Shown here in pieces: positions 39,036 to 44,058 of a stretch of 64,000 nt of DNA. The position numbers and the translations under genes were made by a program. Source of the DNA: Eledone cirrhosa (Eukaryota); assembly GCA_964016885.1 (NCBI GenBank), contig OZ024740.1:367908001-367972000 (forward strand), read 5' to 3'. Numbering within the stretch: the stretch's first letter is position 1; each line of letters begins with the position of its first letter. Below the pieces are notes generated by a model. The model had not been told where the DNA came from and searched no databases. It saw only the letters and a list, made by a program, of their open reading frames with translations.

Positions 39036-39341
39036 GTTATTTATATATATATATGTATTTATATATATATATATATATATGTATATATATATATATATAT
39101 ATATATATATATATATATATATATATATATATATATATATATATATTAGGTATAGGATTATCCAAGATGCAGTGATGGTTAATTACTACACTGGATATGG
39201 TTGACGTACGGTAAGAGGTTACTCTACGAGTTATGGAAGAATTGTTCAAGAAACTTAGTTCCTGATCCTTCAGTATTCCGGAGTGTATATAAAGAATGAA
39301 TAATAACAGGTAGACATCATAAAAAGGTAGTTTATTCCGTG

Positions 39342-39453
39342 TGCTTACAAGTGTTTCCACGGTGGTACTGCAGCCTAGTTCCGCTACGTGCAAATTCACA
39401 AGTATTTGCAGAACTCGAATATCCAATGCTGTGACCACTGTTTCCTCAGAGCA
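39342..39453 (-). ncRNA. Hammerhead with extended stem II (mirror of 43442-43553)
   Basis: Reverse complement of 43442-43553. Confidence 0.75.
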
Positions 39454-39946
39454 GAATGGTAAATATACAATGTAAAAACCCTTAAGTGGGGTTGTTGGGG
39501 AAGATAGGGTGGAACAGGAAGAGAGAAAAGTAGGGAAGATGGAGAGAGAAGGAAAGATATGCAGGGGTTGGAGAAGTAGGAGAGAGTGGCTTGTAGATAT
39601 CTTAATCAAAATGTTATGGTAGGGGTTTTATTAGTTACTTTTGGAGAGATGCGTAGATAGTTGAGGTCGGAATTATTTATTGCCCCAGAGGTCAAGTTCA
39701 TAGATGTTGAGAGGGAGGTAGGTCAAAGGTGAGAGAGAGAGAGTGTAATGGATGTAGAGAGAGATATATAGGTAGAGAGGGGACAGATAAAGTATATGTG
39801 GTGAGTGAACTTTTGGTTTTGTAGTAGTAATCTAGGAATTGTACTGAGTTACCATGTATAGTGATAAGCAGTGTATTGTCTTGTAGTGTGGGGGAGAAGA
39901 GAAGGTTGTTAGCTAGAAAGTGGTGTTGTAGTTACGGGTTCGAATG

Positions 39947-41335
39947 TTAAGTTATTTTATAGTGAGAGAATTTAGCTTTTAGTTTGTGGTTGCAGTATAA
40001 TGATCGTTCAATTCTATCGTTAAGTAGTTTGTTTTTGGATTTTAGTATGTAAAATAGCTCAAGGTTACATAACCTGCAGTACTTCAAACCACTCCGATAT
40101 GCATTTGCGCTGGAAAGTATATCCCATTTTAAGGTGAACTGTTGGTTGTGTTCACGGAGTTGCCAGGTCTTGTTGGCGAGCGTGGTCACAAAACGGTGAT
40201 TCTGATGTTTGATTGAGAATCGATGACGGTACCAGCGAGATTTAAACGATGTGGTGGTAGATCCGATATAATACCATTTCTGGTCGTCCGATTCAACCGT
40301 GCATTGGTAAACAATGTTGGACTTTAGGCATTCATTCTGCAATGGACATCTTTCAGGTAGATGGCAGTTACATGCTTTGTTGTGGGTAGCGGGTATACCA
40401 TGGATAGGTTGTGATAGCGGTACAGGTGGGTTGTGCAATATCCGTCTCCCATTTAGTGGTTGGGAGGCAGATATTGCGTTCTGCCCACCTGTTACTAAAA
40501 TGTTTTGTTTTGTAGAGTTGTTTAATTGCCTTAAGTTAAGTTTTTTTATGTATGCTTCAAGGTTTGGTGCCGTGGAGTATGATAGTCTAATAGTTTTGGA
40601 GTTCAGAATTTTGCTGTACTTATGGGAACTAGGGAAGTGTTTATTGATTAATTTAAAGAATGAAAGAGATAGTTTTGTACTAATCGAGGCATTAAAAATA
40701 GGATTATACCAGATATACTTTCTACAACGTGATTTATTTGGTGGTGAACTTCTATTATTAGTATGTCTGGTAGTATAGTGTGTGTGTGCTTGTGTTTTAG
40801 TCCCCCGGTTACGTATACCTTGATTACGTGTAGAGCTATGTGTGTTGTGGAAATTACTATCGATGTATTCTATTGTATCCCGGTGGTCAGCATTCCTTAA
40901 TGCATTATTGTAGTATTCAGCATGTTCGCTAAAAATATCAGAGTTAGACGATAGGCGAGAGATTCTAAGAGAAATACTCCGGGGAACTGATTTTATCATG
41001 GAGAGTGGGTGGTTAGAGTTAAAGTTAATATACGTAAGGTTCTCATTTACCTTGTGGAAGGGTCGTATCTGTCCGGTATTTAAATTAAGAGTTACGTCCA
41101 GAAAGTTTACTACCTTAAGATTGTATTCGTATGTTATTTTTAGGCCCAGTTCACTAAAAGATTTTCTAATATTTTTCCGTAGCCTTTCAAGATTTTGGTT
41201 ATTCAAGTTATTAACTAATAAGAGCCCGTCATCTCTATATATCCCCCCCGGTAGATTACTAAATCTACTATGTAATATGTGGGCTATGTAAATTCCCACG
41301 AGATCCGTGACCTCCACCGAGTCGTTGGAACCCAT
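39947..41335 (-). CDS. 5'-truncated PLE polyprotein: RT motifs B-E and thumb, CxC-x4-C-x5-C linker, GIY-YIG endonuclease (Nematis-like, inferred)
   Basis: Motifs MGSNDS.EVTDLVG, GGIYRDDGL, NFLDVTLNL, CNCHLPERCPLQNEC, IVYQC...YYIGST and CRLCNLE. The annotated Met is internal, since the frame is open up to the loop. Confidence 0.9.
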   Translation of the reverse strand: MGSNDSVEVTDLVGIYIAHILHSRFSNLPGGIYRDDGLLLVNNLNNQNLERLRKNIRKSFSELGLKITYEYNLKVVNFLDVTLNLNTGQIRPFHKVNENLTYINFNSNHPLSMIKSVPRSISLRISRLSSNSDIFSEHAEYYNNALRNADHRDTIEYIDSNFHNTHSSTRNQGIRNRGTKTQAHTHYTTRHTNNRSSPPNKSRCRKYIWYNPIFNASISTKLSLSFFKLINKHFPSSHKYSKILNSKTIRLSYSTAPNLEAYIKKLNLRQLNNSTKQNILVTGGQNAISASQPLNGRRILHNPPVPLSQPIHGIPATHNKACNCHLPERCPLQNECLKSNIVYQCTVESDDQKWYYIGSTTTSFKSRWYRHRFSIKHQNHRFVTTLANKTWQLREHNQQFTLKWDILSSANAYRSGLKYCRLCNLELFYILKSKNKLLNDRIERSLYCNHKLKAKFSHYKIT

Positions 41336-41559
41336 GGTAATATCGAAATTTGTGGGTCTGTCCTTACGTTCCCAGTAGCAGTTATCGAACTTAATAATGG
41401 TTTTTCTAGCCTCGAGAATAATATTAATTTCTTCCTCCGTTAGGTCGGAATTGAACGGAGGAAGAAATTAATATTATTCTCGAGGCTAGAAAAACCATTA
41501 TTAAGTTCGATAACTGCTACTGGGAACGTAAGGACAGACCCACAAATTTCGATATTACC

Positions 41560-42948
41560 ATGGGTTCCAACGACTCGGCGGAGGTCACGGATCTCGTGGG
41601 AATTTACATAGCCCACATATTACATAGTAGATTTAGTAATCTACAGGGGGGGATATATAGAGATGACGGGCTCTTATTAGTTAATAACTTGAATAACCAA
41701 AATCTTGAAAGGCTACGGAAAAATATTAGAAAATCTTTTAGTGAACTGGGCCTAAAAATAACATACGAATACAATCTTAAGGTAGTAAACTTTCTGGACG
41801 TAACTCTTAATTTAAATACCGGACAGATACGACCCTTCCACAAGGTAAATGAGAACCTTACGTATATTAACTTTAACTCTAACCACCCACTCTCCATGAT
41901 AAAATCAGTTCCCCGGAGTATTTCTCTTAGAATCTCTCGCCTATCGTCTAACTCTGATATTTTTAGCGAACATGCTGAATACTACAATAATGCATTAAGG
42001 AATGCTGACCACCGGGATACAATAGAATACATCGATAGTAATTTCCACAACACACATAGCTCTACACGTAATCAAGGTATACGTAACCGGGGGACTAAAA
42101 CACAAGCACACACACACTATACTACCAGACATACTAATAATAGAAGTTCACCACCAAATAAATCACGTTGTAGAAAGTATATCTGGTATAATCCTATTTT
42201 TAATGCCTCGATTAGTACAAAACTATCTCTTTCATTCTTTAAATTAATCAATAAACACTTCCCTAGTTCCCATAAGTACAGCAAAATTCTGAACTCCAAA
42301 ACTATTAGACTATCATACTCCACGGCACCAAACCTTGAAGCATACATAAAAAAACTTAACTTAAGGCAATTAAACAACTCTACAAAACAAAACATTTTAG
42401 TAACAGGTGGGCAGAACGCAATATCTGCCTCCCAACCACTAAATGGGAGACGGATATTGCACAACCCACCTGTACCGCTATCACAACCTATCCATGGTAT
42501 ACCCGCTACCCACAACAAAGCATGTAACTGCCATCTACCTGAAAGATGTCCATTGCAGAATGAATGCCTAAAGTCCAACATTGTTTACCAATGCACGGTT
42601 GAATCGGACGACCAGAAATGGTATTATATCGGATCTACCACCACATCGTTTAAATCTCGCTGGTACCGTCATCGATTCTCAATCAAACATCAGAATCACC
42701 GTTTTGTGACCACGCTCGCCAACAAGACCTGGCAACTCCGTGAACACAACCAACAGTTCACCTTAAAATGGGATATACTTTCCAGCGCAAATGCATATCG
42801 GAGTGGTTTGAAGTACTGCAGGTTATGTAACCTTGAGCTATTTTACATACTAAAATCCAAAAACAAACTACTTAACGATAGAATTGAACGATCATTATAC
42901 TGCAACCACAAACTAAAAGCTAAATTCTCTCACTATAAAATAACTTAA
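41560..42948 (+). CDS. Mirror copy of the 5'-truncated PLE RT-GIY-YIG ORF
   Basis: Same motifs; only A/V and Q/P differences. Confidence 0.9.
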   Translation: MGSNDSAEVTDLVGIYIAHILHSRFSNLQGGIYRDDGLLLVNNLNNQNLERLRKNIRKSFSELGLKITYEYNLKVVNFLDVTLNLNTGQIRPFHKVNENLTYINFNSNHPLSMIKSVPRSISLRISRLSSNSDIFSEHAEYYNNALRNADHRDTIEYIDSNFHNTHSSTRNQGIRNRGTKTQAHTHYTTRHTNNRSSPPNKSRCRKYIWYNPIFNASISTKLSLSFFKLINKHFPSSHKYSKILNSKTIRLSYSTAPNLEAYIKKLNLRQLNNSTKQNILVTGGQNAISASQPLNGRRILHNPPVPLSQPIHGIPATHNKACNCHLPERCPLQNECLKSNIVYQCTVESDDQKWYYIGSTTTSFKSRWYRHRFSIKHQNHRFVTTLANKTWQLREHNQQFTLKWDILSSANAYRSGLKYCRLCNLELFYILKSKNKLLNDRIERSLYCNHKLKAKFSHYKIT

Positions 42949-43441
42949 CATTCGAACCCGTAACTACAACACCACTTTCTAGCTAACAACCTTCTCTTCT
43001 CCCCCACACTACAAGACAATACACTGCTTATCACTATACATGGTAACTCAGTACAATTCCTAGATTACTACTACAAAACCAAAAGTTCACTCACCACATA
43101 TACTTTATCTGTCCCCTCTCTACCTATATATCTCTCTCTACATCCATTACACTCTCTCTCTCTCACCTTTGACCTACCTCCCTCTCAACATCTATGAACT
43201 TGACCTCTGGGGCAATAAATAATTCCGACCTCAACTATCTACGCATCTCTCCAAAAGTAACTAATAAAACCCCTACCATAACATTTTGATTAAGATATCT
43301 ACAAGCCACTCTCTCCTACTTCTCCAACCCCTGCATATCTTTCCTTCTCTCTCCATCTTCCCTACTTTTCTCTCTTCCTGTTCCACTCTATCTTCCCCAA
43401 CAACCCCACTTAAGGGTTTTTACATTGTATATTTACCATTC

Positions 43442-43553
43442 TGCTCTGAGGAAACAGTGGTCACAGCATTGGATATTCGAGTTCTGCAAATACTTGTGAA
43501 TTTGCACGTAGCGGAACTAGGCTGCAGTACCACCGTGGAAACACTTGTAAGCA
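43442..43553 (+). ncRNA. Type I hammerhead with an ~85-nt structured stem II
   Basis: tgct CTGAGGA [acagtggt..cagc..agttc tgcaaat..atttgca..gaact..gctg..accaccgt] GAAA C actt G TA agca, then AATAAA at 43559. Confidence 0.75.
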
Positions 43554-44058
43554 CACGGAATAAACTACCTTTTTATGATGTCTACCTGTTATTATTCATT
43601 CTTTATATATATATATATATATATATATATATATATATGTATATATATATATATATATATATATATATATATATATACATATATACATATATATATATAT
43701 ATATATATATATATATATATATATATACATATGTATATATATATATATATATTATATATATATATATATATTCATATATATACATATATTATATACATAC
43801 ATATATATATATATATATATATATATATATATATATATATATATATATATATATATATATATATATATATATATAAATATATATATATATATATTTGCAT
43901 AGGTTATATTTTATTTGTTGGGATCCAACAACCTTTAAAATGTTTATAACTGATATAAAGCCCTCAAAACGTTAGTGGAGTAGCTATCCACCGAATTTCA
44001 ACCGGTGAGGTTGTCTTTTTTTCCGGGTATGTCAGTATTTATTTATAAAACAAATCTG

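Follow-up and report, generated by a model that had tools for sequence, protein, structure and literature searches.

How a long and nearly perfect palindrome comes to stand in a genome as a single insertion is the question raised by a locus of Eledone cirrhosa. The window, a stretch of 64,000 nucleotides (nt) from contig OZ024740.1 of assembly GCA_964016885.1 (forward strand, 367,908,001 to 367,972,000), carries two mirrored copies of a Penelope-like element, and all positions below are window positions unless stated otherwise. The palindrome consists of two head-to-head, 5'-truncated copies of a young element that, from its motifs and its (TA)n target, appears to belong to the Hydra clade. 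A survey of the family in this genome shows that such head-to-head pairs are its usual form and that their two outer ends differ in a nearly strict manner. We propose that the palindrome is probably one young insertion into (TA)n that arose by double priming of both nicked target strands, followed by end joining of the two complementary DNAs (cDNAs).

The left arm (39286-41441, minus strand) and the right arm (41454-43609, plus strand) are 2156 nt each, with a 12-nt loop between them (41442-41453, minus strand). The arms differ at exactly three positions, 39508/43387, 41250/41645, and 41316/41579. All three are changes of the left arm, and the right arm keeps the letters common in the family. 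The loop is present in the left copy only and, as confirmed against the element frame, is in-frame sequence of that copy. On the outer side, the left copy extends a further 140 nt (39146-39285, minus strand) up to its (TA)n run; this segment is referred to below as the tail. The right copy terminates in an internal TATATA, which is fused with a (TA)n run. The left and right parts of the (TA)n target tract lie at 39060-39145 and 43604-43895, as delimited by sequence and self-BLAST, and the flanks outside them are unmirrored and unique. The arm lengths, the three mismatches, the loop letters, its reading frame, and the unequal ends were all as the original prediction had described them from the same letters. 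In the coordinates of the 3177-nt repeat unit (denoted u and taken from the natural copy L010), the left copy covers u871-3177, the loop u871-882, and the right arm u883-3037. The junction at 41453|41454 is blunt, with 0 nt of microhomology, and there is no remnant of TA between the arms. A single copy of the junction 19-mer exists in the 3.0-Gb genome. An Rfam match to MIR5380 at the loop is below the gathering score and reflects only the perfect hairpin.

Each arm contains a 5'-truncated reading frame of about 500 codons. The open reading frame (ORF) of the left arm (39947-41453, minus strand) begins before motif RT4 (YRDD) of the reverse transcriptase (RT) and continues through a CxCX5C linker to a C-terminal GIY-YIG endonuclease; it lacks the first ~270 residues and a start codon. 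The ORF of the right arm (41455-42948, plus strand) is also 5'-truncated, with 497 amino acids and no start codon. Because the first ~270 residues are absent from both arms, the locus cannot encode the enzyme. The identity of the element was read from a full copy, L004, with a 784-codon open frame that includes YRDD and a C-terminal VY..YIG endonuclease. Its frame contains VRWKAF (the RWK motif) and ADKTSN, in which DKG is changed to DKT. Read by eye, the linker CNCHLPERC fits CxCX5C, CRLCNLE and N..CNH supply the CxxC and CxH that adjoin the conserved E and N, and a CCHH motif is absent, with a single Cys between the VY and YIG motifs. Among 664 homologues of the ORF at E<=1e-10, one is annotated with PF01541 (GIY-YIG) and is aligned over the endonuclease; a direct Pfam scan and a PDB sequence search of the ORF returned nothing significant. 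Membership in Naiad/Chlamys was rejected, since that group requires an endonuclease N-terminal to the RT and here it is C-terminal. The initial identification was right in that the locus is a Penelope-like insertion and its inverted partner is 5'-truncated. The nearest other copies show 2 differences from the right arm in 2152 sites; thus, the insertion is very young. Three further places in the window resemble this kind of element. The stretch 22950-24413 (minus strand) belongs to a second element of this type, which is divergent and has a 5'-truncated ORF, a CNC..C linker, YFG, and a 5' end near a TA run. Broken RT-like frames at 45533-47601 (minus strand), with a 323-nt, 84% inverted repeat, probably represent another decayed Penelope-like element. 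A 305-nt inverted repeat (13540-13844 and 13984-14288, 98% complementary, 139-nt spacer) has TA runs on both sides and looks like another two-armed insertion.

To place the locus in its family, loci were collected with short exact patterns. A 29-mer from the 3' region has 509 matches in the genome, which sets a lower bound of 509 on the number of 3'-end copies in the family; the 24-mer taken at u901 has 142. All 77 loci formed by the first 100 of the 29-mer matches made up a sample chosen regardless of structure; 72 loci from the first 100 of the 24-mer matches and 11 from a similarity search were added. A further set comprised 40 of 58 short head-to-head junctions, two more of which were already included; about 200 loci were covered in all. 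A head-to-head junction was present in 51 of the 77 loci sampled without regard to structure; head-to-head pairs are the usual form of this family in this genome. Furthermore, the outer ends cluster at two positions, u3037 (without the tail) and u3177 (with it), and a TA run is adjacent to 248 of 259 non-tandem outer ends (118 of 122 for the tail ends). Among the junctions of L031-L190 with both outer ends resolved, 88 of 90 have the tail at one outer end and lack it at the other (binomial p 7e-24), as do 35 of 36 in L191-L230, which gives 123 of 126 for both sets together. Junctions with an unresolved or non-standard outer end (16 of 106 and 4 of 40) were left out of this count, and L066 and L067 are one insertion within a duplicated segment. 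Two of the three exceptions, L069 and L216, fit the rule once a later insertion is skipped. The stop of the right arm is thus not incidental, the internal TATA being one of two fixed ends of the family.

In the 88 pairs in which the reach of both arms could be compared, the tailed arm extends further in the 5' direction in 52 and the tail-less arm in 36. Self-complementary arms of at least 2 kb occur in 10 of the 88 pairs examined. A larger palindrome of the same family, L110 (G000:C4:39639800-39649799, 993-9824), has 4.3-kb self-complementary arms that run through a tandem border, a 1-nt loop, and one tail and one tail-less end. The family also displays the known Penelope features of partial tandems (pseudo-long terminal repeats, pLTR), an adjacent inverted 5'-truncated copy, and a 3' tail at one end. 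In the classical, L1-type twin-priming inversions L063, L066/L067, and L077, the inverted piece derives from just 5' of the truncation point. Two further details of the outer ends were observed. In L069 and L216, a related short element has inserted at an identical position, immediately ahead of the TATA in the tailed arm, and L069 also shows a target duplication; in L071 and L099, the tail-less ends are joined at u3030 to (CT)n, not (TA)n.

The two arms also agree in their alleles. A silent variant is common to both arms of the palindrome and is found in one other genome copy, which is distant (25 further differences from the right arm). This supports the single template haplotype for both arms that was originally suggested. 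Across the family, minor alleles shared between the arms number 555 against 41 discordant known sites in asymmetric pairs and 52 against 1 in symmetric pairs, and random family copies have a median divergence of 2.8%. These allele patterns indicate that one template haplotype supplies both arms family-wide, whether the pair is symmetric or not. Since haplotype sharing is found everywhere in the family, it does not single out a cDNA that copies itself.

The junctions themselves were compared with shuffled pairs. Microhomology of at least 2 nt is present in 34 of 66 junctions without inserted bases (16% in random joins), and bases are inserted at 22 of 88. Microhomology and inserted bases are expected traits of end joining. 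Near-symmetric junctions are enriched, with 7 of 88 within 25 nt (1.9 expected), and this excess is confined to the tight class, in which 4 of 88 lie within 5 nt (0.47 expected, p 0.0008), all four with 1-nt loops. Offsets of 6-25 nt are not enriched (2 observed and 1.4 expected with the present locus excluded), and the locus lies outside the tight symmetric class. With the locus again excluded, shuffling of 87 pairs predicts 0.39-0.58 cases of a long-arm pair within 25 nt. For these two reasons, the locus may represent a shared stop or a coincidence picked for its looks, and at the scale of the family the truncation of both arms within 12 nt, originally read as a pointer to a special event, does not exceed chance. 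Ten 5' ends fall within u871-896, two of them from this locus. They hint at a truncation hotspot or stall region, and only hint at it because the long-copy set was selected with a pattern at u901-924. In the short-arm set, selected for both ends near u2864-2887 and so informative on the edge and loop sizes but not on frequencies, both arms stop mostly at u2864-2887, with loops of 1 nt in 12 of 40 and no loop in 1 of 40. Identical short-arm junctions recur across haplotypes with unrelated flanks; therefore, they are rebuilt at each insertion. Genome-wide, at 58 short head-to-head junctions both arms end close to the 5' boundary of the hammerhead-like motif described below, equivalent to 43436-43460 of the window, and the limit of these ends falls at u2864-2867, within an initiator-like sequence.

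Taken with the end-pairing rule, these data lead us to infer the following order of events. Reverse transcription would begin from both nicked TA target strands, with one start at the tail end and the other at the internal TATA 140 nt upstream. On the simplest reading, both primings would probably occur on the same RNA. Both cDNAs would grow toward the 5' end of the RNA and stop near u871-883, through a shared break, a stall, or coincidence. Finally, host end joining would link the cDNAs head to head, at this locus with no microhomology. As a general rule two primings are required, because the longer tail-less arm of 36 of the 88 pairs cannot be a copy of the tailed cDNA. In addition, a loop of 0-1 nt closed by a stem of 1-3 bp could not form within one strand, whereas two cDNA ends that stop near the same position could pair in this way. 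The loops too small for an intramolecular hairpin and the longer tail-less arms thus favor two primings, and the twin-priming inversions (L063, L066, and L077) show that second-strand priming on the same RNA occurs in the family. Double priming is also favored by the Penelope-like protein studied in vitro (PMC11167929), which acts on both target strands and uses two start sites at the borders of the tail. A more demanding version, in which one enzyme complex obligatorily makes two cDNAs from one RNA, using the two ends of the tail and both target strands, has in our estimate an even chance of being correct. If so, the palindromes would be the direct product of transposition, and symmetric palindromes would mark the run-off of both enzymes at the same RNA end, including a capped start upstream of the hammerhead.

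Several observations weigh against double priming on one RNA. L186 has the tail at both ends, remains a true tail/tail case after re-inspection, and is the only such insertion seen. At 55 loci a single arm is above the BLAST threshold; four of them have a short inverted tail stub beside a tail-less arm. Patches of discordant known alleles in some older pairs (e.g., L106, L120, L130, and L180) would reflect either later conversion or two templates. In vitro, PAc, the Poseidon element of Anolis, uses its two start sites alike on both strands and without target homology (PMC11167929), whereas both ends of the present family overlap the TA target. A snap-back at this junction could still have been made possible by one or two untemplated A residues. 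The locus is known from an assembly, with no read seen across it. Finally, sequence does not tell whether one RNA or two RNAs of a single source copy were used.

This last point is the core of a rival explanation, in which dual priming used two RNAs of the same source copy, one for each target strand, and the near-symmetry was coincidental. It accounts for the shared haplotype and for either arm being longer, dual priming has been proposed for L1 (PMC2837659), and the chance expectation for long-arm pairs and the possible stall region at u871-896 would both accommodate the near-symmetry. It offers no simple reason for the pairing of tail with no tail, however, and the tight internal junctions (L038 and L110, the latter with its 4.3-kb arms) suggest a shared template end; we regard this explanation as rather unlikely. 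The snap-back model has the tailed cDNA fold at the loop and copy itself, with the copy captured at the internal TATA or annealed to a second primed cDNA. Arkhipova et al. 2013 (PMC3846280) put forward self-priming of this type to explain palindromic junctions. At the present locus the tailed arm extends further than its partner, as the model needs, and both the rare variant shared by the arms and the family-wide enrichment of symmetric junctions are in its favor. The original prediction relied on a GTT/AAC microhomology at the loop and itself named the family sequence as the test of snap-back. The family sequence before the loop (CAATTCC) is GGC, not GTT, and together with the blunt junction this refutes snap-back as it was stated. 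Moreover, a natural 4-bp hairpin at u875-888 would yield another junction, the model cannot produce the pairs with a longer tail-less arm, and symmetric pairs show no enrichment of locus-private shared variants (1 in 4.6 kb, compared with 58 in 36 kb for an asymmetric set that includes older copies). Snap-back in any form is accordingly unlikely.

Two explanations outside target priming were also considered. Long palindromes are troublesome for assemblies (PMC8557442), and an assembly or library artefact such as a fold-back read, or a sister-end fusion of one broken DNA end, would be consistent with the lack of a read across the locus. In a fold-back, however, tail and flank would both be mirrored; here the ends differ as they do in the family, the flanks are unique, and the arms have three differences at which the right arm carries common alleles. 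Reduced-representation reads of three other samples were searched with the 3' region, and an opposite-strand joint in this region is present in raw reads of two of them (3 and 1 reads), which is weak support and does not concern this locus. The contigs of four runs at the junction belong to a different haplotype, with no bridging piece among the 28 of 256 pieces listed. An artefact of this kind is extremely improbable. The fold-back by fusion of one DNA end described in bioRxiv 10.1101/2024.12.14.628481 was rejected as a candidate, since it would mirror the flank. Alternatively, the arms could go back to two independent insertions into a single (TA)n tract, or to an inversion that took place later, and have been homogenized by gene conversion between them. 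The tract is a nest of such elements, and conversion could account for the shared variant. This history is nevertheless very improbable, given that the arms have no TA remnant between them, the ends follow the rule of a single event, and the locus is very young, with the nearest copies 2 sites from the right arm. Double priming of both target strands therefore remains our preferred reading.

A descriptor scan identified one hammerhead-like motif per arm, at 39342-39453 (minus strand) and, as its mirror, at 43442-43553 (plus strand, predicted cut after 43549). The motif has a 4-bp stem I, a CUGAGGA core, a stem II with 6 of 7 pairs, a loop II of ~70 nt, and GAAA. In its core and stems the motif follows the layout published for the Hydra clade, from which it departs in its oversized loop II; Rfam does not detect the motif, and folding it as a hammerhead costs 3 kcal/mol relative to the minimum. 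A read-through RNA had been pictured as bracketed by a hammerhead. Each arm carries one hammerhead-like motif, but on any such RNA only the downstream motif would be in sense, inside the paired stem. Just upstream of the predicted hammerhead, the initiator-like CCATTCT (43436-43443, plus strand) is a candidate RNA 5' end, and in other loci both arms pile up at this place (u2864-2870). Of the arms that end exactly at u2867, 11 of 13 are preceded by G. This hints at a capped RNA start, and only hints at it because some of the preceding Gs may derive from the partner arm. Other hammerhead-like motifs in the window belong to neighboring elements. A minimal one with a U3:A8 core pair lies at 38593-38641 (plus strand) in an element between TA runs, with a weak Rfam match, and two more lie in short elements just right of the palindrome, at 44059-44125 (plus strand) and about 44246-44292 (minus strand).

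Collectively, the locus is real, young, and ordinary in kind, truncated and non-coding, and the value of the analysis lies in the family survey rather than in the locus itself. The head-to-head inverted 5'-truncated structure was already known; the strict count of end pairing is a useful addition. Craig et al. 2021 (PMC8557442) treat the way in which Penelope-like elements form their inverted repeats as an open question, and the end rule, the shared template, and the tiny loops turn this question into a simple mixed-template experiment with an existing in vitro system. The family is young and has open-frame copies. Its inverted repeats with arms of at least 2 kb, at least ten among the 88 pairs, may be a source of hairpin RNA or fragile sites. 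In the literature found, there was no double-priming model or end-pairing count for Penelope-like elements, although Evgen'ev & Arkhipova 2005 and Arkhipova 2006 may hold one; the accessible part of a 2026 retrozyme preprint contains nothing on inversion.

The closest relatives are the C-terminal-endonuclease elements of the Hydra clade described by Craig et al. 2021, among which Penelope-13_HM has a 966-nt inverted copy at its 5' end (PMC8557442). The present family shares with this clade RWK, DKT, CxCX5C, CxxC and CxH around E and N, the (TA)n target, a hammerhead near the 3' end (a hammerhead-like motif here), and the inverted 5'-truncated partner. In contrast, its unit is 3177 nt (mostly <3 kb in published elements), its tail is 140 nt (30-40), and its hammerhead loop II is ~70 nt (3-10). 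A typical Penelope insertion has a pLTR, an adjacent inverted copy, and a tail at one end (Arkhipova et al. 2013, PMC3846280; Schostak et al. 2008, PMC2377424; Craig 2021, PMC8557442 Fig. 2). The head-to-head order, the one-sided tail, and palindromes at some junctions are the same here. However, the passages compared describe the tail as "optional" or "often at one end," whereas the pairing counted here is nearly strict, and the inverted arm of the present locus, at 2.2 kb, is almost as long as its partner. For PAc, whose protein is a predicted dimer, target-primed reverse transcription was studied in vitro by Frangieh et al. 2024 (PMC11167929). Similar to the present family, PAc has two RT start sites that bound a tail, both target strands are cut and extended, and the target is AT-rich. 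Its start sites are only 30-40 nt apart, however, and the portions of that paper available to us contain no model for inverted copies. Finally, in the twin or dual priming of L1 (Meyer et al. 2010, PMC2837659), the second target strand likewise primes a second cDNA, and the pieces are joined head to head at their 5' ends. The second primer of L1 uses a variable internal site, and the pieces hardly overlap. In contrast, the second primer of the present family starts at a fixed position, 140 nt away from the first, so that the two arms are copies of the same sequence and form a palindrome.

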